From NCBI GenBank assembly GCA_963737655.1, contig CAVTTN010000002.1:1088001-1152000 (forward strand): 64,000 nt of DNA. Direction: 5' to 3'. Shown piece after piece: positions 1,412-50,587 of this stretch. This stretch comes from an uncultured Planctomycetota bacterium (GTDB lineage Bacteria > Planctomycetota > Planctomycetia > Isosphaerales > Isosphaeraceae). The notes below the pieces were generated by a model. That model was given only the letters and a program-made list of their open reading frames with translations, did no database searches and was not told the origin of the DNA. Position numbers and translations under genes: made by a program. The first letter of the stretch is position 1. Every line of letters starts with the position of its first letter.

Positions 1412-4212
1412 ATGGAACCCGCCCCGGACCGCCGATCGGCCGTCGTCTTCCTCATCCTCGTCACGATCGCCCGGCTCGCCGCGACCGGATCGACCCTCGC
1501 CGACGAGGCCAGGCCCTCGCCGGCCGACCTCGAATTCTTCGAGGCGAAGGTCCGCCCGGTCCTGGCCGAGCATTGCCTGTCCTGCCACGGGCCCGAGAAG
1601 CAGAAATCGGGGCTGAGGCTCGACTCGCGATCGGCGGCGCTGAAGGGCGGCGCGAGCGGGCCGGCGATCGCGCCCGGAGACCCCGGGAACAGCCCGCTCA
1701 TCGAGGCCGTCCGCCAGTCCGGCGACCTGAAGATGCCGCCCAAGGGGAAACTGCCCGAGGAGGCCGTCGCCGCCCTGACCGACTGGGTCAAACGGGGCGC
1801 CGCCTGGCCCGAAGCCAAGGCCGCGCCGACTCTCGATCCCAGGGCCACGCACTGGGCCTTCCAGCCCGTTCGCAACCCCGGGCCCCCGGCGGTGAAAGAC
1901 GCGGCCTGGCCCAAAGACCCGATCGACCGCTTCATCCTGGCGAGGCTCGAAGCGAAGGGGCTCTCGCCGTCGAGACCGGCCGACAAGGCCACGCTGATCC
2001 GCCGGGCCTCGTTCGACCTGGTCGGCCTGCCGCCGTCTCCCGAGGAGGTCGCCGGGTTCGTCCGGGACGACTCGCCCGACGCCTTCGCCAGGGTCGTCGA
2101 TCGCCTCCTCGCCTCGCCCCATTACGGCGAGCGCTGGGGCCGCCACTGGCTGGACGTGGCCCGATACGGCGACACGAAAGGCTATGTGTTCACCGAAGAC
2201 ATGGAATTCCACTGGGCCTACACCTACCGCGACTGGGTCGTCAAGGCCCTGAACGCCGACGTCCCGTATGACGAGTTCCTCGTCCGGCAGATCGCCGCCG
2301 ACCGGCTCGTCTCCGGCGAGGACCGCCGGGACCTCGCGGCCCTGGGGTTCCTGACCGTCGGCAGCCAGTTCATGAAGAATCGCCAGGACGTCCTGGATGA
2401 CCGGGTGGACGTCACGACTCGCGGACTGATGGCGCTGACGGTCTCCTGCGCCCGGTGCCACGACCACAAGTTCGACCCGATCCCCACGGCCGATTATTAC
2501 TCGCTGTACGGCGTGTTCGATTCGACGGTGGATCCGTCGGTCCCTCCCCTGTTCGAGCCTCCCCCGCAAACCGCGGAATACGAGGCGTTCTCTCGCGACC
2601 TGGCCGCGAGGGAGAAGGCCCTGGCCGCGTTCGTCGAGGAGAAGCACGAGGAGCTCGTCCGCCAGACCAAGACCCGGATGGCCGACTTCCTCCTGGCGGC
2701 CCAGGCCACCGGCCGGCAGCCGGATACCAACGAATTCATGCTGATCGCCGACAAGGGAGACCTCAACCCGGTGGTCCTCGGCCGGTGGCGGCGGTTCCTC
2801 AAGAAGACCTCGGAGGGCGCCGACCCGGTCTTCGGGCCGTGGCACGCCCTGGCGAAACTGCCGAAGGACGGATTCGCCGAGAAGGCGGCCTCGACGCTCT
2901 CGACCCTGGCCTCCGACCCGAAGACGCCGGTGAACCCGGTGATTCTCCGGGCCCTGACCGAGGCCCATCCGTCGTCGTTGGCCGAGGCGGCGGAAGTCTA
3001 CGGCCGGGTGCTCAACGCGAACGAGACGATCTGGCAGGATTACGCGAGGCGGGCGGTCCTGAACGGCTCGCCCGCGACCGCGCATCCAGACCCGGCCCGC
3101 GAGGAGCTCCGCCAGGTCTTCCACGGCCCCAACTCGCCGGTGTTCCTGCCCCCTCGGCCCAATCGCGGCGACCTGACCTTGCTGCCCGATCGCGCCTCCC
3201 AGGGCAAGTATCGGGAATTGCTCAAGGATCTGGAAGAGTTCCGGATCAAGGGCCCGGCGCGCCGGCCCGGGCCCTGGCGGTCGAGGACTCGCCCAACCCG
3301 GTCCAGCCGCGGATCTTCCGCCGGGGCAACCCCGGCAACCCCGGAGATGCCGTCCCTCGACGGTTCCTCGCCGTCCTCTCCACCGGCGAGCGGAAGCCGT
3401 TCCAGGACGGCTCCGGCCGCCTGGAGCTGGCCCGGGCGATCGCCTCGAAGGACAACCCTTTGACCGCCCGGGTCCTCGTCAACCGCTCATGGATGCACCT
3501 GATCGGCAGGCCGATCGTGGGGACGCCCGGCGATTTCGGCCTCCGCAGCGACCCGCCCTCGCACCCCGAATTGCTCGACCACCTGGCCTCCTCGTTGCTC
3601 GCCGACGGCTGGTCGCAGAAGCGGCTCCATCGCCGGATCATGCTCTCGGCCACCTATCAGCAGGCGAGCGATCCTCGACCCGAATGCGCGGCGGTCGATC
3701 CCGAAAACTCGCTCGTCTGGAGGGCGAACCGCAAGAGGCTGGACTTCGAGACGACCCGAGACGCGATCCTGAGCGTCTCGGGGAGGCTCGACCGCTCCCT
3801 CGGCGGCCCTCCGGTGCGCGACATCCTCACGCCGGGCGCCTCGCGACGGACGCTCTACGGCTATATCGACCGCCTGAACCTGCCGAACGTCTACCGGGCC
3901 TTCGACTACCCCGACCCGAACGCCTCGAACGCTAAACGAGACCTCACCACGGTCCCCCCGCAGGCCCTGTTCCTCATGAATCACCCGATCGCGATCGAGG
4001 CGGCGAAGGCCACGGCGAAGAGGCCCGAGATCGCCGCCGAGGCCGACGAGGCGAAAAGGGTCGAGCGGCTCTATCGCCTCCTCTACGGCCGAGATCCGTC
4101 GAGCGAGGAGGTCGCCCTGGCCCGCGAGTACCTCGCCGACCCGGCCGGCTCCTCGTGGGATCGGTACGTCCAGGGGCTTATGATTGCCAATGAGTTCGTC
4201 TTCATCGACTGA
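1412..4212 (+). CDS. Planctomycete cytochrome c + DUF1549 + DUF1553 (PSCyt/PSD1) protein, with one frameshift near 3255
   Basis: CLSCHG and CARCHDHKFDPI motifs, YGERWGRHWLDVARY, NPLTARVLVNR, PPSHPELLD; the frame switches in ggcccggc near 3251-3260. Confidence 0.9.
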
Positions 4213-4225
4213 GGAGGGCCGGGGC

Positions 4226-4477
4226 ATGACGACCGTGATCCTGGAGCACGACGCGAGCAAGCTGGCGAACCTGACCGGGGAGGTCGAGGTGTGCGACCCC
4301 TCGGGCCGCGTCCTCGGGTACTTCCGGCCGAACGTCCCCGATCGTTCGCTCTATGAGGGGATCGAAATCCCCGTGACCGAGGAAGAATTGCAGAGGTCCG
4401 AGCAGGAGATGCGCGAGGGGAAGGGATTCACCACGGCCCAGGTGCTCGACCATCTCAAGGGCCTGGAGGCGCGCTGA
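4226..4477 (+). CDS. Putative type II antitoxin, copy 1
   Basis: 83-aa acidic protein after a GGAGG RBS, ending EGKGFTTAQVLDHL; its stop overlaps the toxin start (TGATG). Confidence 0.65.
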   Translation: MTTVILEHDASKLANLTGEVEVCDPSGRVLGYFRPNVPDRSLYEGIEIPVTEEELQRSEQEMREGKGFTTAQVLDHLKGLEAR

Positions 4478-4740
4478 TGGCCGAGGTTCTCTGGACGCCG
4501 TCGGCCCTGGACCGGCTCGCCACGATCTGGACCGAATCGTCCCGCCGAGAGGCCGTAAACGAGGCGGTGGCACGAATCGACCGGGAACTCGCGGCCGACC
4601 CCGCCCACTCCGGAGAATCTCGCGACGAGGGCCGACGCATCCTGATCGATCTGCCCCTCGGTGTGATCTTCCGACCCGGGCCGGGCGGGGCGTCGGTCAC
4701 CGTCCTCGCGGTCTGGGCAATCCGGCCCAGGAATCCCTGA
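4477..4740 (+). CDS. Putative RelE/ParE-superfamily toxin, copy 1
   Basis: 87 aa starting VLWTPSALDRLATIW, with LAADP..GESR and VTVLAVW, a RelE/ParE-like pattern; translationally coupled. Confidence 0.65.
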   Translation: MAEVLWTPSALDRLATIWTESSRREAVNEAVARIDRELAADPAHSGESRDEGRRILIDLPLGVIFRPGPGGASVTVLAVWAIRPRNP

Positions 4741-4765
4741 CGAACCTTCCGAGAAGGAGGTGAAC

Positions 4766-5020
4766 ATGACGACCGTGATCCTGGAGCACGACGCGAGCAA
4801 GCTGGCGAACCTGACCGGGGAGGTCGAGGTGTGCGACCCCTCGGGCCGGGTCCTCGGTTACTTCCGGCCGAACGTCCCCGATCGTTCGCTCTACGAGGGG
4901 ATCGAAGTCCCGTCCGACCTGGAGGAACGACTGGGTCGGGCCCGCGAGCAGAGGGAGGCCGGCGAGGGGCACACCCTGGCCGAAGTCCTGGCCCACCTCA
5001 CGAGCCTGGAGTCCCGGTGA
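4766..5020 (+). CDS. Putative type II antitoxin, copy 2
   Basis: First 47 aa identical to copy 1; AAGGAGG RBS; TGATG overlap with the next gene. Confidence 0.65.
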   Translation: MTTVILEHDASKLANLTGEVEVCDPSGRVLGYFRPNVPDRSLYEGIEVPSDLEERLGRAREQREAGEGHTLAEVLAHLTSLESR

Positions 5021-5286
5021 TGGCGAGCGTCCTCTGGATGCCTGCGGCCCTGGGCCGATTGGCGGACGTCTGGACCTCCGCGCCCGATCGCCAGGCCGTC
5101 ACGGAAGCCGTCTCGCGGATCGATCGGGCCCTGGCCTCCGGGCCGACCGTCATCGGGGAGTCCCGAGATCGCGATGAGCGCATCGTGGTCGAGCCTCCCC
5201 TGGTCGCCGTCTTCGCCGTGGGCCCGGGCGGTCAGGCCGCCTTCGTCCTGGACGTCTGGGCGTCCGAGCGACGTCGTCCCCGCTGA
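5020..5286 (+). CDS. Putative RelE/ParE-superfamily toxin, copy 2
   Basis: MASVLWMPAALGRLADVW...IDRALASGP..GESRD...VLDVW; paralogue of 4477-4740. Confidence 0.65.
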   Translation: MASVLWMPAALGRLADVWTSAPDRQAVTEAVSRIDRALASGPTVIGESRDRDERIVVEPPLVAVFAVGPGGQAAFVLDVWASERRRPR

Positions 5287-8575: not shown

Positions 8576-9510
8576 TCAAGCCCCGGGGCGGGCCGTCAGG
8601 CCCGATGGCTCGCCCGACCTCCCCGGCCTCGTCGCCTTGCCCAGCCAGAGCCTCGCCGAGATCGCCCACGACGCCGCCATGTAGAAGGCCGGGTAGATCG
8701 TCGAGACCAGGACGAGGTTTCTCGCCAGGCCCTCGGGCACGCGATGGCCGGGGGAACCGTCGGAGGGCAGGAGCGCCAGGACCGCGACCAGGAGGGCCGC
8801 CCAGGCCGCCCCTCCGACGTTGCTGACCTTGTTCAGCAGACCCGGGCGCGACGACGGATAGAGATAGCGGCTCGGGACGAACGTGAGGACCGACAGCACG
8901 AGGACGACCGCCAGGGAGGCCCAGGGCGGCAGGTCCAGGACGTAAAGGTAGAACGCCACGATGTTCCAGAGCGACGGGAAGCCGAGGAAATAGCCGTCGT
9001 CGGTCTTGATCGACGTCTGGCAGAACCCGTAGGCGCTGGCCATCAGGGGGACGATCAGCCACGCCTCCTGCCCGGCGGGCAGGATCGCGGCCTTCCAGAT
9101 CAGCAGCAGGGGCAGGCAGGTGTAGGTCAGCCAGTCCACCAGGTCGTCGAGCCTCCGGCCGTCGAAGCCGGGGAGGACTTCCTTGATCCGGACCCGGCGG
9201 GCGAGGGTGCCGTCGGTGGCGTCGATGACCGTGGCGACGATCATCAGGGCGAACGACCCTCGGAACGCCCAGGGGCCGCCTTCGATCAGGAGCCAGGCCA
9301 TCCCGGAGGCGGCCACGAGGCCCAGGGCCGTATAGAAATGGACGAGCCAGGCCAGGACGCGGACGGTCGAGCCCCGGGCGCCCTCGGGGCGTTGCGGACC
9401 CTCTTGTCCTTGGTCCGGAGGATCACCCAGCGGGCCACGCGGTTGCGGGCGAGCTTGTCGCCGACGGTCCGCCATCGGGCGTTGCGGTCGCGGGCGCGTT
9501 TCTCGGTCAT
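8576..9510 (-). CDS. pcs: Phosphatidylcholine synthase-like CDP-alcohol phosphotransferase (probable frameshift near 9385)
   Basis: AWLVHFYTALG, DATDGTLARR..DGRRLDDLVDWLTY, KTDDGYFLGFPSLWN typical of Pcs; ATG at 9510 overlaps the permease stop, alternative in-frame start 9475. Confidence 0.8.
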
Positions 9511-10991
9511 CGTCGGGGTTCCCGTGGAGGGCGGCCGATCCGTCTTCGGCGGTCGCGGGCGATCAGGAGGCCGAGCACCACCAGGGCCGCCGTGGCCAGG
9601 GGGGCGGCGAAGCGCTGGTGCCAGGCCGGACCGTAGACCTCGGCTCGGGGCCAGCCGGTGTTGATCACGATGGCCACGGCCCACCCGACCGCGACGACGT
9701 TGACCGCCGTGCCGAACCGGCCGAGGCGGAAGAACGAGGGGGACTCCGGCCAGCCCCGGCTCAGGCGGCAGGCCAGCAGGGACGCCGACACCAGAAAATA
9801 CGCCAGGTCAATCCACACGACCGAGACCGTCGCGATCAGGACCACGACCTTCGGGTCCTGGAAATTCATCAGCAAACCCAGGGCCGCCAGGCCCCCGACG
9901 ACGATCGCCGGGGCCACCGGCGAACCCGAGCCGCCGACCCGACCCAGCCGGCCCGAGCCGGGCAGCAGGCCGTCCCTGGCCAGGGCGAAGACCAAGCGAA
10001 CGGCCCCGGCGTGGACCGTCAGGGCGCAGGAGACGATCGCCACCGCCACGACGACCAGGAACGCCGAGCCGAGGCCGGGCCCCAGGGCGGTCCGGACGAT
10101 CAGGGTCAGCCCGCCTCCGGCCAGGTCCGGGTCCGCCGGGTCGTCGGCCGCCATCAGGGCCGAGAGGATCAGCAAGCCGCCGAGCACGGCCGCCGAACCC
10201 AGGGCGAGGACGATCGCTCGGGGCGACTTCTTTCGAGGCGAGACCGTCTCCTCGGCGAGCGAGCCGGCCGTCTCGAATCCGTACAGCACGTACGACGCCG
10301 TCAAGGCCGCCGCGAGATACGCCCCCGGGCCGATCGGCCCGCCGCCCCGGGTGGAGGCCGCGCTCAGGGCCTCCATCGGCCCTCTCCGGGCGTGGGCGAA
10401 CAGGAGGGCCACCAGGGCGACGGCCCCCAGCAGCTCGACCATCACGCCGACATTGTTGATCGTCGCCAGGAGCCGGACCCCCCGTGCGTTCAGGAACGTC
10501 GTGAGGCCGATCAGGACGCAGCCCAGGAGCACCGCGTTCTTCGCCTCGGAGGCCGGGTCGCCGGCCGTCCCCACGACCTGGAATCCCGACCACAGGGCCG
10601 GCAGGACCGCCTGCAAGGCCATCGACACCGCCGCCAGGGAGACGACCGAGCCGGCCATCGAGATCCAGCCGGCCATCCAGCCCACCGACGGCGAGCCGAC
10701 CCGGCGGGCCCACTGATACACGCTCCCGCACAGCGGGTAGCGGGCCGCCAGCTCGGCGAAACCCAGGGCCAGGCTCATCTGCCCGAGCGCCACCACCGGC
10801 CACGTCCAGAACACGCCCGGACCGGCGAAGGCCAGGCCCAGGCCGAGCATCTGGAACAGCCCGGTCAAGATCGAGATGAACGCGAACCCCGCGGCGAACG
10901 ACGAGAACCCGCCGAGCGACCGGCCCAGGCTCTGGGCATAGCCGAACCCGGCAAGGTCGCGCTCATCTCCTGGAGTCTCGGCGGTGGTCAC
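9507..10991 (-). CDS. APC-family amino acid/amine permease (choline/ethanolamine/GABA type)
   Basis: GYAQSLGRSLGGFSSFAAGFAFISILTG, AELAARYPLCGSVYQW, GFETAGSLAEET; about 12 TM segments; GTG start inferred. Confidence 0.85.
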   Translation of the reverse strand: MTTAETPGDERDLAGFGYAQSLGRSLGGFSSFAAGFAFISILTGLFQMLGLGLAFAGPGVFWTWPVVALGQMSLALGFAELAARYPLCGSVYQWARRVGSPSVGWMAGWISMAGSVVSLAAVSMALQAVLPALWSGFQVVGTAGDPASEAKNAVLLGCVLIGLTTFLNARGVRLLATINNVGVMVELLGAVALVALLFAHARRGPMEALSAASTRGGGPIGPGAYLAAALTASYVLYGFETAGSLAEETVSPRKKSPRAIVLALGSAAVLGGLLILSALMAADDPADPDLAGGGLTLIVRTALGPGLGSAFLVVVAVAIVSCALTVHAGAVRLVFALARDGLLPGSGRLGRVGGSGSPVAPAIVVGGLAALGLLMNFQDPKVVVLIATVSVVWIDLAYFLVSASLLACRLSRGWPESPSFFRLGRFGTAVNVVAVGWAVAIVINTGWPRAEVYGPAWHQRFAAPLATAALVVLGLLIARDRRRRIGRPPREPRR

Positions 10992-11026
10992 GGCGCGCGA
11001 TGCCCGAAGGGAAGGTGGTTCCTCAC

Positions 11027-11099
11027 TCCCGTAGGGTGCATGAAATGCACCATCCTGGATTGCATCAAGGGGATGGTGCATTTCATGCACCCTACGGGA
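11027..11099. repeat. GTAG-type REP doublet (family A), perfect 29-bp arms
   Basis: tcccGTAGggtgcatgaaatgcaccatcc ... ggatggtgcatttcatgcaccCTACggga. Confidence 0.85.
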
Positions 11100-11135
11100 T
11101 TCCGTCGCCCTCTCCTCGGGCGAATACGTCCTGTC

Positions 11136-11942
11136 TCAGGCCCGCCTGGTCGCCTGATAGATGCCCCACTTCATGTCGCCGGCCTGGCAGAACCGGACCT
11201 TCATGGCCCAGCGATCGACCAGGTAATTCAGGTCGGCCTCGGAGAACGAGCCGAGGAAGTCCTCGCGATTGGCCTCGAGCCGGGCGGGCTCGGACTCGAG
11301 GATCTCGACGAACCGAGGGGTGGCGTCCTCGACGACCACGTCGACGAACCCGGCGTCTTCCAGGAGCTTGCCGTACTCGCTCGGCTCGACGAGGTGATAG
11401 CCGGTGCTCCGGGCATACGCCTCGAACTCGGCCGAGCCCGGCTTCTTGCCGCGGGCGTAGTCGGTGATCACCAGCTTGCCACCGTCGCTCAGGAGGCTGT
11501 GGAGCTTGGCGAACAGCCTCTTCTTGTCGTGGATGTGCATCAGGGCGTCGCGCGACCAGATCAGGTCGAACGGCTCGTCGAAGTCGGTCTCCAAAACGTC
11601 GGCCAGGAGGAACTCGACGCGATCGGAGACGCCCGACTCGGGCAGGGCGTCCAGGGCCAGGTCGGTCATCTCGGGGGAGAGGTCCACGCCGGTGACCGTC
11701 GCCCCGTACTCCCGGGCGAGATGGAACGCCGCGCCGCCGATCCCGCTGCCGACGTCCAGGACCCTCATCCCCGGCCGGAGCGCCCCGCCCAGGAGCGAGC
11801 AGAGGTACAGGGTCGTCTCGCGCCCTCCGGTGCTGATGTAGCCCTTCCCGAAGATCTTCTCGTACCGAAGGATGCTCGTCCGGCTGTACTGTCCGTTGTT
11901 GTCGTAAGAGCGGGACGCGGAGGATCGCGAGAGGGTGGTCAT
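11136..11942 (-). CDS. Phosphoethanolamine N-methyltransferase-like SAM methyltransferase (plant PEAMT C-domain / Plasmodium PMT type)
   Basis: QYSRTSILRYEKIFGKGYISTGGRETT, VLDVGSGIGG, FDLIWSRDALMHIHDK, LVITDY, W..K......MKWGIY match the remembered eukaryotic PMT signature along the whole length. Confidence 0.82.
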   Translation of the reverse strand: MTTLSRSSASRSYDNNGQYSRTSILRYEKIFGKGYISTGGRETTLYLCSLLGGALRPGMRVLDVGSGIGGAAFHLAREYGATVTGVDLSPEMTDLALDALPESGVSDRVEFLLADVLETDFDEPFDLIWSRDALMHIHDKKRLFAKLHSLLSDGGKLVITDYARGKKPGSAEFEAYARSTGYHLVEPSEYGKLLEDAGFVDVVVEDATPRFVEILESEPARLEANREDFLGSFSEADLNYLVDRWAMKVRFCQAGDMKWGIYQATRRA

Positions 11943-12103
11943 GTCGATGTCGAACCCTTGGAGATGAGCGTGATCGAGGAGGACGGGCGGGGCGGGGCAG
12001 CAAAGCAAAGAGGCGGACGGGCCGCTCGGCCCTGGCCGGGAAGCGCGGGCCGGGGGGATCCCGTGGAGATCCCGAGTGGGGCCCGTGAACGTCGGGGATG
12101 ATT

Positions 12104-13030
12104 CTAATCGGATCGACCCGCCCCGTCCAACCCCCAGGCGGTCTTTTCTGGACCCCCGAGCGAGGCCCGGGCCGCCCGGTGCCTCTCCAGGCTCGCCTCG
12201 GCGTACCCGCGATAGTCGAAATCCAGGTCCGAGGCCACCGTCTGGACGATCGACCAGAGCGCCTCCCTCAGCAGCGAAGACGCCTTGAAGATCCGCAATT
12301 CGACCAGGTCGGCCGGGTCGAAATGGCCCCGATAGGCCGTCAGGAGGAGCCGGTCGAGGTCCTCCCCGTATTCGCAGTTCGCCGAGATCCCCGCCAGGTC
12401 GAAGAACGGGTGGCCGATCCCTCCGTATTCCCAATCGACGATCCAGACGCGCCGGCCGTCGTCCAGGACGTTGGCCGGCAGCATGTCGTTGTGACACAAC
12501 GTCGGGACGAACGGACGGACCCGCCGGGAGAGCCGGCGGTCGTCTTCCAAAAGGGCGTCGATCCCCTCCGGCAGCCTCGCCCCGAGCCTCCGGGACGTCT
12601 CGGCATACGTCCGGTTGGCCTGAAACGGGGAGAAATAGAACATCTCGCCCCGGAGCCCGTCCCACCCGTCATGGAGTGCCCGGAGCAATCGGGCCAGCCG
12701 GGGAATGAACTCCGGGTCACGCCCGGATTCGGGCGTCAAGACGCGCGATTCGACGTAACGGGTCACCAGCCAACCCTTTTCGGCGAAAACGATCGGCGGC
12801 GCCACGCCCAGGGCCTCGGCCGCCCGCCCGCAGGCCAGCTCGTTGCGGCGGTCCACCCCGAGCCAGGGCAAATCGGCGCCGATCCGGGCCACAAAAGACC
12901 CGAACTCGTCATCCACCCGGTAGTTGCGGTTGGTGATCCCGCCCGGTAAGGGCCGGATCGTGACCGACCCTCGCCAGATCCCCAGCGACCCGATGCGATC
13001 GACCTCCGAGGCGTCCTCTCCGGCCATCAC
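12104..13030 (-). CDS. Choline/ethanolamine kinase family phosphotransferase
   Basis: PLPGGITNRNYRV, GVDRRNE, Brenner motif CHNDMLPANVL, IVDWEYGG, FFDLA. Confidence 0.85.
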   Translation of the reverse strand: MMAGEDASEVDRIGSLGIWRGSVTIRPLPGGITNRNYRVDDEFGSFVARIGADLPWLGVDRRNELACGRAAEALGVAPPIVFAEKGWLVTRYVESRVLTPESGRDPEFIPRLARLLRALHDGWDGLRGEMFYFSPFQANRTYAETSRRLGARLPEGIDALLEDDRRLSRRVRPFVPTLCHNDMLPANVLDDGRRVWIVDWEYGGIGHPFFDLAGISANCEYGEDLDRLLLTAYRGHFDPADLVELRIFKASSLLREALWSIVQTVASDLDFDYRGYAEASLERHRAARASLGGPEKTAWGLDGAGRSD

Positions 13031-14937: not shown

Positions 14938-15838
14938 TCACCCCCTCGCCTGCCGGCTCAGGAGGTAGCTCATCAGCGCCTTGTCGAACGGCATCCCGGT
15001 GTGGATCGGGACGTAGTCGATCCTCGCGCCGAGGCATTCCTTGCGATAGTCCTCGCGGAACTTGGCCACCTCGTCGAGGTAGTCGGCCTTGATCCCCTCG
15101 GCATCGACCATCAGCTTCTCATGGGTCTCGTTGTCCTCCAGCTCCAGCATCCCCTCGAACGGGAAGAGGGCCTCGGCCTCGTCCAGGATGTGGAAGACGA
15201 TGATGTCGTGGCCCGAGTGGCGGAGGCGATGGAACGCCTTGAGGATCGGCTCGGTGTCCCCCAGCAAGTCGCTGAAGAGCATGACGAGGCTCCGGTGCCG
15301 GATCATCCCGGCGACCTGATGGAGGCTCTTCGCCACGTTCGTCTCGCCCGACGGCGAGAGCTTCGCCAGCAGCGACAGGATGTTCCCGAGCTGGGACCTC
15401 TTGCTCCGGGGCGGCAGGCTCTGCCGGACCTGCTGATCGAAGGCGACCAGGCCCACCGGGTCCTGCTGATGGATCATCAAATAGCCCAGGGCCGCCGCCA
15501 GGCTCACCCCGTACTCGAACTTCGTGAGCCTCCTGGCGATAGGTGTAGCCCATGCTCCCGGAGAGGTCCATCACGAGGTAGCCCGTGAGGTTCGTCTCGG
15601 CCTGGAATTTCTTGATGTAGAACCGATCGGTCTTGGCGAACACGTTCCAGTCGATGTCGGCGATGTTGTCCCCGGGCGTGTACTTGCGGTGCTCGGAGAA
15701 CTCGACGGAGAACCCGTGGAACGGGCTGGCATGCAGCCCCGAGATGAACCCCTCGACGATGAATTTCGCCCGGAGGTCCAGCCGCGACACCTGGCGGATG
15801 ACCTCGGGCTTCAGGTACTTCTCGGCGGGTCCGGCCAA
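14938..15838 (-). CDS. DUF58 (MoxR-associated, vWA-like) protein, frameshift near 15527
   Basis: GLHASPFHGFSVEFSEHRKYTPGD, IDWNVFAKTD, DLSGSM, then FSDL in another frame; TTG start. Confidence 0.88.
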
Positions 15839-15861: not shown

Positions 15862-16438
15862 CTAGAAGACCTCGGCCAGGGGGATGGCCAGGCCGGGCAA
15901 AAGGGGCGACTCATACACCTCGTCGACCGTCAGGACGCGCTCATCATACCCCTCGGGGCGATGCGTGAGCACGGTCACGATCTTGCGGAACCGATCGACG
16001 ATCACGTATTCGCGAATTCCCAACGCATGATACTCGGCGCAGCTTCTCGATGTAATCCCGGTCGCGCGACTCTCGCCCCGGGCTGACGATCTCGAACATG
16101 AGTTCGGGCGGGTTCTTCGGGACGTCGAACTCCGAGGCGCAAAGATAGACGCCGAGATCGCCCACGCGGTCGCCATCCTCGGGCCGGACCCACGCCTGCC
16201 CGACGACCTCCTCGATGATCCCGGGATGGGCGAACTTGAAGAGGATCAGCCGATCGCGCCACGGGTTCGAAGCCCGGATATGTCCGCCACCTTCCGGCGC
16301 CATGGCCAGGAGCCTCCCCTTCACTCGCTCATAGGTCCACGGCTCGGCGAAGTCGGCGTCGGCGAACTCTTCGGAGGAGACGAGCCGGCCGTGGTCCTCG
16401 GGGCCGAGCTTCAGGAGGCGTGGTGCGTCGGTCGCCAT
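15862..16438 (-). CDS. Uma2/DUF820 endonuclease, tandem copy 3 (frameshift near 16042)
   Basis: PELMFEIVSPG..RDYIEK [shift] AEYHALGIREYVIVD...SPLLPGLAI. Confidence 0.85.
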
Positions 16439-16453
16439 CGTTCGGGCTCCTCG

Positions 16454-17041
16454 TCAGGCGAACGCCCCGGCCCAGTCGATCGCCAGGCCCGGCAGGAGCG
16501 GCGAGGTGTAGGCTTCGCCCTCGGGGAGCTCCCGCTCGTCATACCCTTCGGGGCGGTGGGTGAGCACCGTGACCTTCCGCTGATGGGGATCGACGATCAC
16601 ATACTCGCGAATTCCCAACGCATGGTACTCGGCGCGCTTCTCGATGTAATCCCGGTCGCGCGACTCCCGCCCCGGGCTGACGATCTCGAACATGAGGTCG
16701 GGGACCCGGTCGGGGATTTTTGGGACGGGGCGGGTCGTGCTCAGGTAGACGCCGATGTCGCCGATCCGGTCCGTTCCTCCCTGGATCCTCACCCAGGACG
16801 AGGGCACGACCCAATCGATCGAGTCCGGATGGGCGTGCCAGTAGACAGCCAGATTGAGCCACCAGGGGCTGGTTCCGGCGATGTGAAGCTCCCCATCCGG
16901 CGGCATGACGACCAGCCTCCCTCGGACGCGTTCATACTTCCACGGCTCGGCGAAGTCGGCCTCGGCGAACTCTTCGGAGGAGACGAGCCGGCCGTGGTCC
17001 TCGGGGCCGAGCTTCAGGAGGCGTGGTGCGTCGGTCGCCAT
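16454..17041 (-). CDS. Uma2/DUF820 endonuclease, tandem copy 2
   Basis: YERVRGRLVVMPP, PDLMFEIVSPG, KRAEYHALGIREYVIVDP, SPLLPG. Confidence 0.9.
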   Translation of the reverse strand: MATDAPRLLKLGPEDHGRLVSSEEFAEADFAEPWKYERVRGRLVVMPPDGELHIAGTSPWWLNLAVYWHAHPDSIDWVVPSSWVRIQGGTDRIGDIGVYLSTTRPVPKIPDRVPDLMFEIVSPGRESRDRDYIEKRAEYHALGIREYVIVDPHQRKVTVLTHRPEGYDERELPEGEAYTSPLLPGLAIDWAGAFA

Positions 17042-17056
17042 CGTTCGGGCTCCTCG

Positions 17057-17644
17057 TCAGGCGAACGCCCCGGCCAGGTCGATCGCCAGCCCCGGCAGGA
17101 GCGGCGAGGCGTAGGTCTCGCCCTCGTGGAGCTCCCGCTCGTCATACCCTTCGGGGCGGTGGGTGAGCACCGTGACCTTCCTCTGGTGGGGATCGACGAT
17201 CACGTACTCGCGGATGCCCAACGCATGGTACTCGGCGCGCTTCTCGATGTAATCCCGGTCGCGCGACTCCCGCCCCGGGCTGACGATCTCGAACATGAGG
17301 TCGGGAATGCGGTCGGGGATTTTTGGGACGGGGCGGGTCGTGCTCAGGTAGACGCCGATGTCGCCAATCCGGTCGGTCCCGTCCGAAACCCGGACCCATG
17401 ACGCCGGGACCAACCAATCGATCCGATCGGGCCTCTGCTCCCAGTAGGCGAAGAGTTTGCGCCACCAGGGGCTGGTCCCCGAGATGTGAAGCTCCCCATC
17501 CGGCGGCATGACGACCAGCCTCCCTCGGACGCGTTCATACTTCCACGGCTCGGCGAAGTCGGCGTCGGCGAAATCGTCGGAGGAGACGAGCCGGCCGTGG
17601 TCCTCGGGGCCGAGCTTCAGGAGGCGTGGTGCGTCGGTCGCCAT
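17057..17644 (-). CDS. Uma2/DUF820 endonuclease, tandem copy 1
   Basis: Same motifs; 603-bp offset from copy 2. Confidence 0.9.
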   Translation of the reverse strand: MATDAPRLLKLGPEDHGRLVSSDDFADADFAEPWKYERVRGRLVVMPPDGELHISGTSPWWRKLFAYWEQRPDRIDWLVPASWVRVSDGTDRIGDIGVYLSTTRPVPKIPDRIPDLMFEIVSPGRESRDRDYIEKRAEYHALGIREYVIVDPHQRKVTVLTHRPEGYDERELHEGETYASPLLPGLAIDLAGAFA

Positions 17645-31417: not shown

Positions 31418-31716
31418 GCTCCTGACCCCTTTTCTGCCTCCATGGTATTTCCCTCCGTCCCCTTTTCCGCCCCCCCCAGAATTCCCTCCGTCCCCTTTTC
31501 CGCCCCCCGTCCCCTTTTCCGCCCCCACAGAGTAGCTCCGTCCCCTTTTCCTCGCTCCCCTTTTCCTCGCCCGATGGTATATGCCCGTGTAAAGTTCACG
31601 GGGAGACGGCCTTCCGTGGCTCGGGAAGCTCAGAATTCCCTCCGTCCCCTTTTCCGCCCCCGGGAAGCTCAGAATTCCCTCCGTCCCCTTTTCCGCCCCG
31701 TCCCCTTTTCCGCCCC
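31418..31716 (+). repeat. Cluster 2 of GTCCCCTTTTCC repeats, including copy 2 of the ~125-bp direct repeat
   Basis: About nine units with irregular spacing. Confidence 0.85.
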
Positions 31717-33234
31717 TCCGTCCGGCCCCCACCGAGAGGCAAGGAACCACGCATACATGAAACCCGGAACGATCGATGGAAGGGCATACAGTGAGCACGA
31801 GAACGTCACAAATTTCCCAGGCGTCCCATTTGGAAGGGTTGCAAGTAGCATTGGGAAAAGGAGCAGCACGACTACCAGAGACAGTGCGATATGCTGGAAG
31901 CGGCCCAAACGCGGGGTCCATGCAAATCGATGTAATGCCATAATGATCAAGAATTCTGTACAGGCACTCATTAGAAGCGAGACAATAAAGCCTGCAATTA
32001 TAGAAAAATTGTACATATATTTCAAGAGCGTGCCCAGGGAGACGAGGGAGTATGTGGAGCATGCGAATGCAGCCACACAAAAAACAAACGAAAAGAAGAT
32101 CGAAGCAATGAATCCCTTAGAAAAGAATCCCTTAGAAAAACCATTGTGTTTCCACGTTAAATATGTAAGACCAATCGATGCTGCCGACAGCAGCAGGGTC
32201 GCCATGAGCCAGAAGATCCCTGACAGAGCGAGAGGCAGAATCGTGCCGACAACTCGTGCAAGAGGGGTTGGAAAGGATCTGATCGAGAGTGTCACTGCGG
32301 CCGCCCCAGGCGCAAGTTCATGCTGTTTTTGGATGAGCGATACGCCAGGGAACCCAATAGTCACCGATGACATGCCCGACGGCTGAGTTCTCGGGGTTAC
32401 CACAATCCATCTTCCATTAATCACATATTGATCATATTCAACTGTTTCATAATTGCTTCCAAACAATCCAAATTCCTGAGTTTTCCGACTTTGCGTCAAG
32501 TGTTCTCTGTATGCGTCCAATGTTCCTCGGCGCACCGTGAATCCAGGGGGTGCCACCGTAGTGGCACCCGTGATGAGCCGTTCTACCTCTGCATCTGTCA
32601 AGACATAGGGATCGAGAGGAACGCCTGGCAGGTGAAACACTCGATCCTTGAAGAATCCTCTTGAGATTGAGGCGGGGATTTCCTCCTGCTGTCCATTGAC
32701 GACGTCAGCGACACGTTCCTCTGACCAAGCAGAATCCACAATCTTTGACATGACTGACCCAAATTGATTACTTTTTAAGTACAAAAAAATTGAAGGCATA
32801 AATGGAATTGCGATCATAAACATTACGATGATAGATAAAATATCCGCAAACAGCAACCAGCGGGTGCCCTGTCTGAGGGACCTGTGTGCCTTTCTTCGTG
32901 ACTTGGGTCGCCTTCCCCCGATCGGTTCCTCAGACAAGTCTAGGCTCGCCAGTAGCTGTGGCGGTCGTGGGTCCAAGTCGCTGGAGTCCCACGATTCCTG
33001 CACCGGCGTTGCCGGCTCGACCCGCGATGTTGAGGTGGTCCCCTGCTGACCGACGGTGTTTCTTGGTTCGTCGTTCGAAACCCCGCTGGTGTTCAGCAGC
33101 TCCGCGCTTTCAGGTGATGCACTTGCAACGTCCTTCATTGGTGAGGGTGCTGCTGCATCTGGTGGCCCACCCGAACTTGACTGATGGGAGTCATTCGGTT
33201 CGGAACCCTCGGTCATGTCCCGCTCCTTTCGCAC
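31669..33234 (-). CDS. Low-GC orphan multi-pass membrane protein (foreign; 3' end runs into the repeats)
   Basis: Long ORF, about 50% GC by eye, several TM segments; last residues (AEKGTGRKRGRREF) are translated repeat. Confidence 0.65.
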   Translation of the reverse strand: MRKERDMTEGSEPNDSHQSSSGGPPDAAAPSPMKDVASASPESAELLNTSGVSNDEPRNTVGQQGTTSTSRVEPATPVQESWDSSDLDPRPPQLLASLDLSEEPIGGRRPKSRRKAHRSLRQGTRWLLFADILSIIVMFMIAIPFMPSIFLYLKSNQFGSVMSKIVDSAWSEERVADVVNGQQEEIPASISRGFFKDRVFHLPGVPLDPYVLTDAEVERLITGATTVAPPGFTVRRGTLDAYREHLTQSRKTQEFGLFGSNYETVEYDQYVINGRWIVVTPRTQPSGMSSVTIGFPGVSLIQKQHELAPGAAAVTLSIRSFPTPLARVVGTILPLALSGIFWLMATLLLSAASIGLTYLTWKHNGFSKGFFSKGFIASIFFSFVFCVAAFACSTYSLVSLGTLLKYMYNFSIIAGFIVSLLMSACTEFLIIMALHRFAWTPRLGRFQHIALSLVVVLLLFPMLLATLPNGTPGKFVTFSCSLYALPSIVPGFMYAWFLASRWGPDGGAEKGTGRKRGRREF

Positions 33235-46285: not shown

Positions 46286-47119
46286 TCACCCGCCCAGCGG
46301 GCGGAACCAGCGGCCGAACTCCGCCCCGGGCGAGTCACCCCGGACGGCCCTCGCCGCCCTCCCCACGGCCAGGATCGGCGCGAGGATCGCCATCGCGCCG
46401 ACGAACCCCCGCCACACGGCGATCCAGGCCGTCGGCGCCAGGACCGCGACCGTCCCGAGGATCGCCAGGGCGATCCAGATCGTGGGCGGCTCGCACGCCT
46501 TGAACAGGGGCCACGTCACGAGCCCTCGGCCTCGTCCGGGCCACGGCGGAGGCGGCGAGGGCCGTCCCCCCGCCCCGCCGTCCACCCGGAACGATCGCGT
46601 CTCTCGCTTCAATCGCTGAAAAAACGCCTTGTATCGGCAATCGTTGTGGAGGCCGAGGAACGTCCAGCCCATCGCCACGAGCCAGCCGGCCGCGGACCAC
46701 CCGGGGCGACCGTCCCGGAGGCTCAGGCCGAACCCCAGGGCGAATCCCAGGGCCATCGTGAGCGCGTGATGCATCAGATAATCGAAATAGACCCCGCCAA
46801 GACTGGCCGTCCCCCGCCACCGGGCGACCTGGCCGTCGACGTGATCCAGCCAGTACGAGAGCCAGAGCGCCACGACCCCGGCCACGAACCCGAGGCGAGT
46901 CCCCGAGCCGATCAAAGCGGCGCCCGCGAGCCCGGAGGCCAGCGCCAGGGCCGTCACCGCATGGGCGGACAGCCCCAGCCGGACCGCCGCCCACGTCCCG
47001 AACACGGCCGACGGCCGGCCCACCCGCCGGGCCAGCCAGTTGCCGACCTCGGGCCCTCGGCCCTCGGAATGTTTGAACACCCGAGAGCGCAACTCGGCGA
47101 GCGAGGGTCGATCGGTCAT
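46286..47119 (-). CDS. CDP-alcohol phosphatidyltransferase family protein
   Basis: SAHAVT, LDHVDGQVARWRGTASLGGVYFDY motif. Confidence 0.82.
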   Translation of the reverse strand: MTDRPSLAELRSRVFKHSEGRGPEVGNWLARRVGRPSAVFGTWAAVRLGLSAHAVTALALASGLAGAALIGSGTRLGFVAGVVALWLSYWLDHVDGQVARWRGTASLGGVYFDYLMHHALTMALGFALGFGLSLRDGRPGWSAAGWLVAMGWTFLGLHNDCRYKAFFQRLKRETRSFRVDGGAGGRPSPPPPWPGRGRGLVTWPLFKACEPPTIWIALAILGTVAVLAPTAWIAVWRGFVGAMAILAPILAVGRAARAVRGDSPGAEFGRWFRPLGG

Positions 47120-48942
47120 CGTCGCGCCCCCGGAATCGCGGCGACCTCGGCCGGGGCATCCAGGTCGTAGATCGAATAGAGCCGAGTCACGCCGTCGGCG
47201 TCGGAAATCGCCTCGCGGAAGGTCGGCGAATGGCCCGAGAGCCACGGCGCAAGCCTTCGCGAAAGGGTCGGGTCGAATTCCACGGCCGCCTCGGGCACCG
47301 GCGGGCAGAGCATCAGATGCGTGAAGCCCTGACGGCGCAAATGATCGACGACCTCTTCGGCGGATTCGCCGCGACTCGTCAGGCCGGTCCGCCGGCGATG
47401 GGCCAGCTCCATCGTGTAAGGTCGAGGCAAGTAGAACCCCCGATGGTCCTGCCCCACGATCCGGGCGTCCGCCGGCAGATTCGCCGCGATCCACCGGCCG
47501 ACGCGATAGGTCGGCTCGCGACGATCGAGGAAGGACTCGGCCGTCTCCCGACCCAGGACCACGCCGATCCCGTGACGGGCCCGGCCGACGGCGATCGTCG
47601 CCTCGAACGCCAGGATGAGCGCGAGAATCCCGACGAGCACGCGGCCCGGGACGCCCCGACGGTCCCACCATGCCGACGCGGCCCACGCCACGCCCACCGC
47701 CATCGGCCCGACCGCCGTGAGCACGAATCGCATGCTCTGCCTCACACACAAACAGGTCGTCAAGAACGCGAATCCCAGGAGGACCACGCCGACGACCCGC
47801 CTCGGCGGCCCGAGCAGCAGGAGGCCCGGCAGGAACAGCAGGAACGCGGGCCCGAACTGGTGCGCGAGGCTGTCGAAGCGGTCGGGGTCGAGCGTCATCG
47901 GGCCCAGGGCCGTGAGCAGGTTCCACGGCGAGACGGCCATCGGCCGCTTGATCGGGTCGAGCACGTCGTCGATCCCGGAGCCGAAAATCCCCCGGAAGAA
48001 CGGATGGACGGGATTTCCCGTGAGGCCATACGCACGCAAGTACCACCCGCCGCCGACGAGGAGCGTACACGCCGCGAACGCGACGAACGGGCGGAATCCC
48101 CGGCCTCGGCCGAGCAACGACCCGCCCAGGACCGCCGCCCAGACCAGCCCGGGATACTTCACGCCGATCGCCATCCCGGCGAGCACCCCCGAGAGCGCGG
48201 CCGACCTCGTCGAGACCCGCCCCGAGACGACCAGGGCCGCGAGCGCCGCGTTGCCGAAGGCGGCGAGGGCGACGTCATTCAGGGGGGCGCCCATCCCGTT
48301 GGAGATCGCGGGGGTCAGCAACGCGATCGTCCCGGCCCATCGGGCGCGATCGCCCAGGACCGGCCGGGCGATCGCCGCCACGTTCGCCGCGAACGCCAGG
48401 CCCAGGACCCACTGGACCAGCCGGCACGCCACCGGCCCCCGGAACGCCAGGGCGACGGCGTAGAGCATCTCGACCACGAGCGGATAGGCCGTCTCGTGGA
48501 GGTCCGGCTCAAACGTCATCGCGCGATCGTGCAAGAAAATCTTCGGGACCTGGAGGTGATAGCATAAGGCGTCGCCATCGGTCACGGGCGACAGCGCGGT
48601 CAGCAACGTGCCGAGGACCGTGGCGATCAGGGCGGCGTCGAAGATCCACGACGGGAGGTCCGACGGGACCGAGGGACGCGCGATCGATCGCGTGAATCGT
48701 CTCAAGGCCAGGGACGCGGGGACCGCGCCGAGGCCCAGGATCAGGAGGAGTCCGCCTCGGCCGAGCGCGCCGATCTCCCCGAGAGCGAACGCGGCGAGGG
48801 ACAGCGAACCGAGGCCAAGCGGGACGGCGAGGCCGAGGGCGTCGCACCGATTCTCGGGAACGCCGATCGACCGGGCGAGGATCGCCAGGCCGAGGCCCGC
48901 CGACCAGGCCGTCAGGAGTGCGAGAAAGAGGAGGTCGAGCAT
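47116..48942 (-). CDS. GT-C / ArnT-like integral membrane glycosyltransferase
   Basis: DALCYHLQVP, GVKYPG, WYLRAYGLTGNPVHPF; many TM segments. Confidence 0.75.
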   Translation of the reverse strand: MLDLLFLALLTAWSAGLGLAILARSIGVPENRCDALGLAVPLGLGSLSLAAFALGEIGALGRGGLLLILGLGAVPASLALRRFTRSIARPSVPSDLPSWIFDAALIATVLGTLLTALSPVTDGDALCYHLQVPKIFLHDRAMTFEPDLHETAYPLVVEMLYAVALAFRGPVACRLVQWVLGLAFAANVAAIARPVLGDRARWAGTIALLTPAISNGMGAPLNDVALAAFGNAALAALVVSGRVSTRSAALSGVLAGMAIGVKYPGLVWAAVLGGSLLGRGRGFRPFVAFAACTLLVGGGWYLRAYGLTGNPVHPFFRGIFGSGIDDVLDPIKRPMAVSPWNLLTALGPMTLDPDRFDSLAHQFGPAFLLFLPGLLLLGPPRRVVGVVLLGFAFLTTCLCVRQSMRFVLTAVGPMAVGVAWAASAWWDRRGVPGRVLVGILALILAFEATIAVGRARHGIGVVLGRETAESFLDRREPTYRVGRWIAANLPADARIVGQDHRGFYLPRPYTMELAHRRRTGLTSRGESAEEVVDHLRRQGFTHLMLCPPVPEAAVEFDPTLSRRLAPWLSGHSPTFREAISDADGVTRLYSIYDLDAPAEVAAIPGARR

Positions 48943-48958
48943 CGACGGGCGGCCCTCA

Positions 48959-50587
48959 TCATCGGGGAGTCGGCTCGGGGGCGGGGAGGGCCGGGGCTGC
49001 GGAATTCACCACGGAGCCACGAAGGGCACGGAGGAAGACACGAAGGAATGCTGGGCCTCGTCGTCTTTGTGTCTTCCCCCGTGCCCTCCGCGGCTCCGTG
49101 GTGAATCTGTCGATCGCGCCTCGGCCCCTGGCCAGGAAGCCCGAGAGTTCCTCCGGAAATGCCCGGGCGCCAATCGCGATCGCGGGCAAGGAGCCGACGG
49201 CGAGGATCACGCCTCGGATCGCGGCCCCGAGCGGTCCGGCTCGGCCGATCTCGACGTGGGCCGCGAGGATCGCGGCGAGGCCGAAGCCCATCGAAAGACC
49301 CGCCACGCGGACCAGATGGAAGGCCCAGGCCCTCGCCCCGCATTCGGCGACGAACGCCGCGAAGCTCGTCAGCAGGAACACGCCGGAGTAGCCGATCGTC
49401 ATCCCCCAGGCCACGCCCACGAGGCCCGAGCCGACCGCGCCGATCGTCCCGACCTCGAGGATCAACGCGAATCCCGCGGCCGTCGCCAGCCCGAGCCGCC
49501 ACGGCCGGCCGACGGCCAGGAGCATCTGCCTGGCCGGCCAGGCCAGCGCCAGGAGGGCCGATCCGAGGACCAGCGGCCGGAGCGCGGGCAGCCCCTCGAC
49601 GTACCTCGGGATCAGCATCCCGAGAAATGCCGGCGCGAAGACATAGGCGATCGCCCCGCCCGCCGCCAGGATCGGCGCCTGGGCCTCGGTGGCCCTCATG
49701 GCCTGGATCGCCACGGCCTTCGGGTCGGCCGTCCGCCCGAGGGTGGCGAGGAAATGGGTCGAGAGGACCGTCACGAGACGGCCGGCCAGGTCCAGGCCCC
49801 AGCCCGCGCCGAGGAGGGCGACGGTGTACAGGCCCGCCGAGCGCTCGCCGTCGGGGACGAAGGCGAGGATCAACGCGCGGTCGATCGTCATCACGGCGCC
49901 GAAGGCGGCCGTGTTCGCCAGGATCGGCAGGCCCACGCCCATCAGGCGGGCCGTCGAGCGGACGTCCCAGGCCCATCGGAGCCGGAGCGGGTTCGAAACG
50001 TGGAGATACGAGATCTTGGCGATCAAGATCACGCCCACGGCCGCCAGCAAGCCCCAGAAGCCGGCCAGCCAGAGGCCCGAGGCCACGGCGACGGCCGAGA
50101 CGCTCGCCTCGACCACGTCCAGGCGGGTCGTCAGCGCGAATTCCCCCCGGGCCCGGAACACGGCGATCAGGAAGCTTTCATAGCGCTTGACCATCGCCAG
50201 GACGGCGACGGCGACGAGGCCCCAGGTCCACTCCGCGGCCAGGGGATCGCCGATTCGCGAGGGCGCCTTGAGCAGCGCCCAGGCGATCAGGGCGGCGGAG
50301 TAGAGCAAGCACGTCAGCGAGTTCGCGGTGTGGGCGACGTCGGCCACCCGGCGGGCCTCGGCGTCCCGCCCCGAGGCGATCAGGGCCGGGATTTCCTGGA
50401 CCGCGCCGAGGCCGACGCCCAGGCTCGATCGGTTCGTGTTGTCGAGGAACAGGCGGAGGCCGGTATAGACGCCGAGCCGTGCCGGGTCCAGGCCCCAGCG
50501 GAGGGCCAGGGTCGTGAGCGTCCCGAGGGCGCGCTCGACCTGCCCGCCCAGGGCGACGATCAGGCCGTCGCGGGTCAGCCCGGCCAC
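48959..50587 (-). CDS. Polysaccharide flippase (Wzx/MOP family)
   Basis: LDPARLGVY, GLPIL, IDRALI, GLYTVA, LIPRY..GLPAL; about 12-14 TM segments. Confidence 0.75.
   Translation of the reverse strand: MAGLTRDGLIVALGGQVERALGTLTTLALRWGLDPARLGVYTGLRLFLDNTNRSSLGVGLGAVQEIPALIASGRDAEARRVADVAHTANSLTCLLYSAALIAWALLKAPSRIGDPLAAEWTWGLVAVAVLAMVKRYESFLIAVFRARGEFALTTRLDVVEASVSAVAVASGLWLAGFWGLLAAVGVILIAKISYLHVSNPLRLRWAWDVRSTARLMGVGLPILANTAAFGAVMTIDRALILAFVPDGERSAGLYTVALLGAGWGLDLAGRLVTVLSTHFLATLGRTADPKAVAIQAMRATEAQAPILAAGGAIAYVFAPAFLGMLIPRYVEGLPALRPLVLGSALLALAWPARQMLLAVGRPWRLGLATAAGFALILEVGTIGAVGSGLVGVAWGMTIGYSGVFLLTSFAAFVAECGARAWAFHLVRVAGLSMGFGLAAILAAHVEIGRAGPLGAAIRGVILAVGSLPAIAIGARAFPEELSGFLARGRGAIDRFTTEPRRARGKTQRRRGPAFLRVFLRALRGSVVNSAAPALPAPEPTPR
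49004..49106. repeat. MITE-like palindrome inside the flippase 3' coding region
   Basis: attcaccacggagccacgaagggcacggaggaagacac ... gtgtcttcccccgtgccctccgcggctccgtggtgaat. Confidence 0.8.

Follow-up and report, generated by a model that had tools for sequence, protein, structure and literature searches.

A conserved gene cluster of the Isosphaeraceae and a predicted phosphobase-methylation route to phosphatidylcholine

Here we describe a four-gene cluster in a 64,000-nucleotide stretch of DNA (hereafter the window; assembly GCA_963737655.1, contig CAVTTN010000002.1, positions 1,088,001 to 1,152,000) from an uncultured planctomycete of the family Isosphaeraceae. The cluster encodes a choline/ethanolamine kinase family protein, a homolog of phosphoethanolamine N-methyltransferase (PMT), an APC-superfamily permease and a phosphatidylcholine synthase (Pcs), and it is real, conserved and specific to this family. 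With moderate confidence, we read it as part of a conserved Isosphaeraceae gene set for a bacterial phosphobase-methylation route that feeds Pcs, and thus the synthesis of phosphatidylcholine (PC). The enzyme types are known and their arrangement is new, and the route to PC is likely a new one for bacteria. Coordinates are positions in the window unless a locus or genome is named.

The four-gene cluster and its conservation

As the original prediction stated, the four genes lie consecutively on the minus strand. The kinase (307 aa; 12104..13027, with an alternative GTG start at 13030) matches the APH and Choline_kinase families, the PMT homolog (268 aa; 11136..11942) is a single-domain protein of the MT2 type represented by the Plasmodium enzyme PfPMT, the permease (494 aa; 9507..10991) belongs to the pcs-linked one of two paralogous types, and the body of pcs (8576..9393) carries the Pcs motif and has Pcs models as its best family matches. 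These identities, all of which had been predicted, are supported by family and structure matches. The gaps between kinase and pmt, pmt and permease, and permease and pcs are 161, 144 and −4 nt, and a weak sigma-70-like site between kinase and pmt (12101..12129, minus strand; 9/12) was called from its consensus match alone. The GC content of the cluster is like that of its surroundings. It is flanked by a divergent alpha/beta hydrolase gene upstream and an unrelated membrane protein gene downstream; a scan of 34 loci showed neither of them next to pmt.

We surveyed 61 family genomes, comprising the genome that holds the window (the source genome, G000; 7.6 Mb, 87.7% complete) and 60 others at least 90% complete, with matches accepted at E values up to 1e-35. 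Matches were obtained for PMT in 40 genomes, for Pcs in 45 and for the kinase in 27. Every PMT-positive genome also carried Pcs (40/40), and pmt and pcs were at most 3.5 kb apart in 32 of these 40 as counted from coordinates. All 27 kinase-positive genomes were PMT-positive, and the kinase was found in none of the 21 PMT-negative ones; 20 of the kinases were at least 49% identical and 7 were 33-42% identical. When 20 pmt loci of relatives were inspected, pcs stood beside pmt in 18, one locus was cut by a contig end and one (G024) was without pcs, so that the two genes share a locus in 18 of 19 uncut relative loci, well above chance. The permease lies between them in 13 of the 18 loci, with no intervening permease in the other 5, and the kinase adjoins pmt in 8 of the 20. 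A search of 300 further planctomycete genomes gave no PMT match at E 1e-45. Named carriers are Paludisphaera borealis (APW60893.1) and Aquisphaera insulae (WP_165232183.1), and automatic pipelines have already placed the label 'phosphoethanolamine N-methyltransferase' on many homologs.

Synteny across relatives thus bears out the predicted co-conservation of the genes, since pcs occurs in all PMT genomes and is linked in most. It does not bear out a fixed four-gene unit: the complete order recurs in G001, G004, G023, G035 and G355, but in many genomes the kinase gene lies at another site or gave no match (13 of 40 PMT genomes), and in G024 the kinase-pmt and permease-pcs halves are separated by 1.7 Mb. 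The most fitting reading is a pair of modules, kinase with PMT and permease with Pcs. An Atg22-like MFS transporter gene, convergent and downstream of pcs, was also seen in 13 loci (L104, L105, L106, L110, L115 and others) and does not occur in the window.

The methyltransferase

The best solved relatives of the PMT are Arabidopsis PMT2 and PMT1 (E 8e-68 and 2e-67), followed by nematode PMT-2 and Plasmodium PMT, and the next class of enzyme begins at E 4e-19. In fold, it matches known PMTs at TM-scores of 0.82-0.92 (33-42% identity) and a sarcosine/dimethylglycine methyltransferase at 0.76. It scored 75 bits on the glycine/sarcosine methyltransferase model NF041675 (cut-off 550), and the structure 8ys9, of the PmtA type that methylates the lipid phosphatidylethanolamine (PE), is a distant match (E 2e-6). 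Among the best 120 of 668 homologs, eleven PfPMT active-site positions are invariant, the equivalents of the Tyr19/His132 dyad and of Asp128, which we take to be a functional site of PMTs, are kept in all 120, and the window protein retains equivalents of Gln18 and of the phosphobase-site residues Tyr27, Tyr160, Tyr175, Tyr181 and Lys247. In PfPMT, Tyr19 and His132 form the catalytic dyad (PMC6705855). Relatives, site residues and fold therefore favour a phosphobase, as originally predicted, as the likely substrate over glycine/sarcosine or lipid PE.

One part of the site is changed. Arg179, a phosphate-binding residue of PfPMT (PMC6705855, PMC4357015), is replaced by Thr (Thr180 here) in all of these 120 homologs, and Gly243 of PfPMT is replaced by Arg (Arg244 here), again in 120 of 120. 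Arg244 lies four residues before the conserved Lys248, one turn away on the same helix. A set of 150 distant representatives included 132 that allowed scoring for Arg or Lys at the two positions: such a residue stood at 180 alone in 70, at 244 alone in 44, at both positions in 2 and at neither in 16. A further 120 PEAMTs, mostly named eukaryotic ones, all carry Arg180 and none Arg244. The top 120 matches of a profile search were two-domain PEAMTs throughout, mostly of vertebrates, with no bacterial name among them. Because the two sites are nearly mutually exclusive and Arg244 adjoins Lys248, the phosphate contact has likely been relocated from Arg179 to Arg244. Judged by its residues, the enzyme is thus a variant rather than a canonical phosphoethanolamine N-methyltransferase, since Arg179 is lacking.

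In a quick tree with 130 rows, the clade of this family (support 98) falls outside a 76-row clade (support 96) that holds most two-domain proteins, so that 'eukaryote-type', the term first applied to the enzyme, denotes homology and not a demonstrated transfer. We considered a transfer from eukaryotes, but this tree, rooted at its midpoint, with most rows lacking taxon names and with no test of clades, does not show one. The protein resembles the C-terminal MT2 domain, not MT1, and its ability to perform the first methylation is the main uncertainty in the predicted route. PfPMT and Toxocara PMT are described as able to start from phosphoethanolamine (PMC10269165, PMC6705855).

More remote homologs were also inspected. 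Weak matches in L033-L037 and L058 were excluded, as they are without most PMT site residues, and matches in viral contigs proved to be distant methyltransferases only (21-45% over parts). Three proteins fuse a PMT-like domain to a cytidylyltransferase (P0205), an aminoethylphosphonate aminotransferase (P0217) and a class II aldolase (P0236), respectively, and suggest phosphonate or other head-group pathways. A 2011 review reportedly noted PMT-like genes in Burkholderia. The sole full-length Burkholderia homolog found has other site residues and a TauD gene as neighbour, not pcs; it lies on a plasmid of Burkholderia sp. FERM BP-3421 (L150:8977-11870), where the PMT-like gene, a TauD dioxygenase gene and a DMT transporter gene stand beside a thiaminase/bacimethrin-like cluster.

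The kinase

The closest solved relatives of the kinase are 3dxq (E 9e-26) and 4r77 (E 6e-16). Its catalytic motifs are intact, namely Brenner's motif HxDxxxxN and the DWEY motif. The aromatic cage of human choline kinase consists of Trp420 and Trp423 (PMC4814829). The window kinase lacks the two-Trp cage, with Glu at the Trp420 site, as in all close homologs aligned there, and both this Glu and the motif RE[AS][LM]W are shared with the kinase of a permease-eutB-eutC cluster (L128). These residues suggest that the kinase likely prefers ethanolamine or less methylated amines. The L128 cluster (L128:2308-8690), from another planctomycete family, runs permease-eutB-eutC-kinase-DAO oxidoreductase and may degrade N-methylated ethanolamines. 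Assignment as the guanitoxin-pathway kinase GntI was rejected (NF041256, 180 bits; cut-off 357), and three matches to longer kinase forms showed no PMT fusion, one unplaced protein also having sulfatase/phosphodiesterase-type Pfam entries.

Kinase and PMT genes are also adjacent in four metagenome loci (L196, L197, L198, L203) with more distant, Arg180-type PMTs and other neighbours, and this adjacency is separate support for the coupling of kinase to PMT. Three of the four carry GcvT/DAO-type oxidoreductase genes, and genes for ABC transporters or for TauD/PhyH proteins are further neighbours within this set; the loci possibly mark a way in which other bacteria supply choline or betaine.

The permease and Pcs

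Two permease paralogues that share 27-31% identity occur in the family; one accompanies eutB/eutC (in five of the loci retrieved) and the other pcs. The window permease is of the second type and is not orthologous to the eutBC-linked ethanolamine permease. It remains beside pcs in G022, G354 and G060, where PMT was not found. Because the permease stays with pcs without PMT and its paralogue sits with eutBC, choline import is likelier than the ethanolamine import first proposed, and the pcs-linked permease is, on this genomic context, likely an importer of choline (or N-methyl-ethanolamine).

The Pcs-like protein scored 101-143 bits on five Pcs models, which have lineage-specific cut-offs of 300-440, and the next family reached 26 bits. 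The motif DG-x2-AR-x12-G-x3-D-x3-D, with a 12-residue spacer, is present in the window protein and in all 25 loci scanned; this spacer in the CDP-alcohol motif has been described as a Pcs signature (PMC3972451). When PMT-positive genomes were compared with three PMT-negative ones, no position differed in all three, either among 84 conserved ones of Pcs or among 103 of the permease. The absence of a fixed difference in this small sample argues against an altered specificity of Pcs; the original prediction had allowed for a missing step or for one enzyme of altered specificity.

The missing step is taken up below; the reading frame of pcs bears on a further claim, the translational coupling of permease and pcs. 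The coupling is real, with an ATG at the permease stop (9510), but in this assembly that ATG is out of frame with the Pcs body. The GC content at third codon positions is 0.95 over 39 codons in the frame of the 9510 ATG and 0.50 over 28 codons from the body-frame start at 9475, and in three same-genus relatives the pcs N-terminus is in frame with the body. Given this codon bias and these relatives, we take the overlapping ATG as the true pcs start (5' end of the gene 9394..9510, minus strand), and pcs as assembled here carries a frameshift near 9390. Frame changes were seen in 6 of 51 conserved genes tested, pcs among the six, and cbiB of the source genome is also split; because other conserved genes show such changes, the frameshift is likely an assembly indel. 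Further split genes at 1412-4212 and 14938-15838 are consistent with assembly indels. The N-terminal extension of Pcs in this genus (window 9394-9510 and relatives) is basic and Arg-rich, about 50 residues long, and shorter in other genera.

Substrate supply and missing steps

CDP-alcohol-type PssA (TIGR00473) was found in none of 37 family genomes (PLD-type PssA was not searched for), and a search for psd gave matches in 7 of 36 relatives but none in the source genome. Since pssA was not found and psd is rare, PE as a substrate for PmtA is probably unavailable.

A source of phosphoethanolamine is suggested by a CobD-like gene that stands divergent from pmt and just upstream of it in six loci (L290, L292, L293, L109, L028, L031), detached from cob genes (for example L290:4643-5851 and L292:4837-6045). 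This paralogue scored 237 bits on TIGR01140 (cut-off 290) and matches 1lc5 at E 1e-38. CobD-like proteins of a 69-71% identity group occur in 7 of the 61 genomes, all PMT-positive, and six of these genomes hold another copy as well. Proteins of a 50-58% group extend to six PMT-negative genomes. In L194, which has a distant PMT, the neighbour of that gene is likewise CobD/HisC-like. CobD homologs of Sulfurospirillum are said, in the norcobamide literature, to decarboxylate O-phosphoserine, and by analogy the pmt-linked paralogue may supply phosphoethanolamine from that compound. The 'de novo' label of the original prediction does not hold for imported ethanolamine, which is salvage; a genuinely de novo supply would depend on the CobD-like decarboxylase that stands beside pmt in other genomes. 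Group II pyridoxal-phosphate serine decarboxylase (PF00282) was found in one of five genomes, not the source genome.

At the other end, a dephosphorylation step is indeed missing, as had been predicted. PF06888 phosphatases were found in none of five genomes; the source genome has five PF12710 matches and six HAD-motif proteins, none near the cluster; and no phosphatase family is common to pmt loci. A broad HAD enzyme acting on phosphocholine is our default guess. A PhnX-like gene lies near pmt in L292 only and was rejected as the phosphatase, being confined to a single locus, with its counterpart in the source genome in a separate cluster (G000:C2:7502154-7506087) that by eye resembles phosphonate catabolism and encodes an HD-domain protein, an FAD oxidoreductase and a phosphonatase-like HAD protein.

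A predicted route and its alternatives

We propose that the two modules act as follows, the substrates, the phosphatase step and the flux being predictions. In the first, the kinase would phosphorylate ethanolamine and the PMT would add up to three methyl groups from S-adenosylmethionine (SAM), converting phosphoethanolamine to phosphocholine; in some genomes, the CobD-like paralogue would provide phosphoethanolamine by decarboxylating O-phosphoserine. A phosphatase, for which a candidate enzyme was not found, would then release choline. In the second module, the permease would import choline and Pcs would condense choline with CDP-diacylglycerol. The second module alone, as in some genomes, would be ordinary choline salvage, and the first would free the cell from external choline. 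A stricter version, fully de novo and free of PE, in which phosphoserine via the CobD paralogue (or an ethanolamine kinase) feeds a PMT with a rewired phosphate clamp and then Pcs, is possible but doubtful. If true, single-domain Arg244-type PMTs outside the eukaryotic clade, together with kinase-PMT pairs of other bacteria, would point to phosphobase methylation as a hidden source of choline in bacteria, possibly older than the eukaryotic form.

Several observations weigh against the proposed route. No phosphocholine phosphatase was linked or identified in the searches run. Of the 40 PMT genomes, 13 have no kinase match and 7 more only the 33-42% homolog, and the co-occurrence counts overstate the association because the genomes are kin and not independent. 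In genera g17 and g31, no CobD-like match was found in 16 genomes and close kinases were also mostly not found, which leaves their phosphoethanolamine source unexplained. The only CobD-like gene of the source genome, of the 50-58% group, sits in a cobalamin operon, and this genome has the pcs-linked permease type only, with no eutBC-type permease and no EutB found. The joint state of positions 180 and 244 changes five times on the tree, and an independent-pairs test (5 pairs, median p 0.5) had too few pairs for significance. Finally, most nematode PMT2 enzymes are reported to be unable to methylate phosphoethanolamine itself (PMC10269165).

This last point leads to the strongest alternative, which we regard as unlikely, namely that the PMT performs only the second and third methylations, and that scavenged mono- and dimethylethanolamine are converted to choline with the help of both kinase and PMT, which would keep Pcs from forming monomethyl- and dimethyl-PE. 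The match to MT2 and not MT1 fits this idea, as do the usual need of PMT2-type enzymes for phosphomonomethylethanolamine (PMC10269165), the acceptance of mono- and dimethylethanolamine by Pcs enzymes (PMC8590670, PMC11409717) and the GcvT-like demethylase genes that adjoin related kinases. However, PfPMT, itself single-domain and MT2-like, performs all three steps (PMC6705855), pmt loci have no separate MT1 partner, and the CobD-like neighbour would yield unmethylated phosphoethanolamine.

It is improbable that the PMT acts on free ethanolamine or lipid PE, with the loss of Arg179 marking the shift. Although Thr at this position throughout the best 120 homologs is compatible with such a change, which would remove the missing phosphatase step and explain the kinase-free genomes, the equivalents of Gln18, the four site tyrosines and Lys247 are kept, Arg244 is new, the kinase is found in PMT-positive genomes only, the PE route is undetected in most genomes and the PmtA-type structure is distant.

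We give little credence to a Kennedy-type ending, in which phosphocholine becomes CDP-choline and the Pcs-like protein is a cholinephosphotransferase, as in Treponema denticola. No LicC appeared among the NTP transferases of the source genome, where nine of ten matches were classified, all in non-LicC families, the tenth was weak and no direct LicC profile search was made; three PF01467 matches resemble, by eye, NadD, CoaD and RfaE. The x12 motif of Pcs is intact, Pcs of this clade is also found with just the permease beside it, and Agrobacterium tumefaciens Pcs did not use CDP-choline and diacylglycerol (PMC11409717, citing unshown data). These points stand against the attraction that no phosphatase would be necessary and against the cytidylyltransferase fusion of the distant P0205.

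Methylation of 2-aminoethylphosphonate to a methylated phosphonate is very unlikely: distant Arg244-type relatives include the aminotransferase fusion P0217 and a PhnX-like gene lies near one pmt, but phosphoenolpyruvate mutase was over its cut-off in none of 37 family genomes, phosphonocholine would have no hydroxyl for Pcs, and a phosphonate needs no kinase. Equally hard to credit is a destination in glycine betaine rather than lipid, for although the kinase-PMT loci L197 and L203 have ABC-transporter genes, with an OpuAC betaine-binding protein in L203, betA was over its cut-off in none of five family genomes and the family linkage is of pmt to pcs.

Relation to known pathways

The predicted route shares with the phosphobase pathway (PfPMT, plant PEAMT, nematode PMT1/PMT2) a homologous MT2-type enzyme, with the Tyr19/His132 dyad and the tyrosine cage, and an upstream kinase. 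Here, however, the enzyme is bacterial, lacks Arg179 and has gained Arg244, is linked to Pcs rather than to Kennedy enzymes, and in the quick tree lies outside the mostly two-domain Arg clade. With the Pcs pathway of Sinorhizobium meliloti, A. tumefaciens, Legionella and Pseudomonas, it has in common the Pcs motif, the best family matches and a linked transporter. That pathway is described as dependent on exogenous choline (PMC8590670, PMC3972451), whereas an internal head-group source is predicted here, and the transporter is of the APC type and not ChoXWV. The Lic-1/Treponema CDP-choline pathway also uses a LicA-like kinase; in the present case there is a PMT, LicC was not found among the transferases classified and the kinase lacks a tryptophan of the cage. 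Phospholipid methylation by PmtA likewise ends in PC after three SAM-dependent N-methylations, but through another methyltransferase family, with a predicted soluble substrate here and with genes for PE synthesis mostly not found. The pmt-linked paralogue is homologous to the threonine-phosphate decarboxylase CobD (TIGR01140, 1lc5), differing in that it is below the cut-off, away from cob genes, usually a second copy and outside the window.

The bacterial routes to PC named in PMC8590670, PMC11409717, PMC10434233 and PMC3972451 are PE methylation, Pcs, CDP-choline and acylation. No description of a bacterial phosphobase route was found in the literature on it or on planctomycete lipids, as covered by listings, the opening parts of abstracts and few subscription papers.

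Other features of the window

At 15944-17644, three genes of the Uma2 family stand in tandem, and their 5' ends are nearly the same. A small two-gene pair (83-88 aa each) at 4226-5286 is tandemly duplicated and antitoxin-toxin-like, with no Pfam match at 1e-5. An operon at 46286-51219, likely for surface-glycan modification, ends in a second, divergent CDP-alcohol phosphotransferase (46286-47119) and includes two membrane proteins and a methyltransferase. At 31669-33234, a low-GC island (49-61%) holds a 521-aa membrane-protein ORF between short repeats.

Significance

The route is directly testable, as PMT occurs in the cultured Paludisphaera borealis and Aquisphaera insulae, and gene deletion is feasible in the related Singulisphaera acidiphila (PMC12493201). 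The Arg179/Arg244 swap is a naturally occurring variation on a fold that is a target for antiparasitic drugs, and the engineering of choline or PC synthesis could make use of a compact PMT from bacteria. The main lipids of S. acidiphila are reported to be PC, phosphatidylglycerol, phosphatidic acid and a trimethyl-ornithine lipid; as the cells were grown with yeast extract and peptone, their PC is no proof of choline-independent synthesis (PMC12493201). The further route predicted here would explain the source of the head group in PC-containing and apparently PE-poor planctomycetes of peat and soil.

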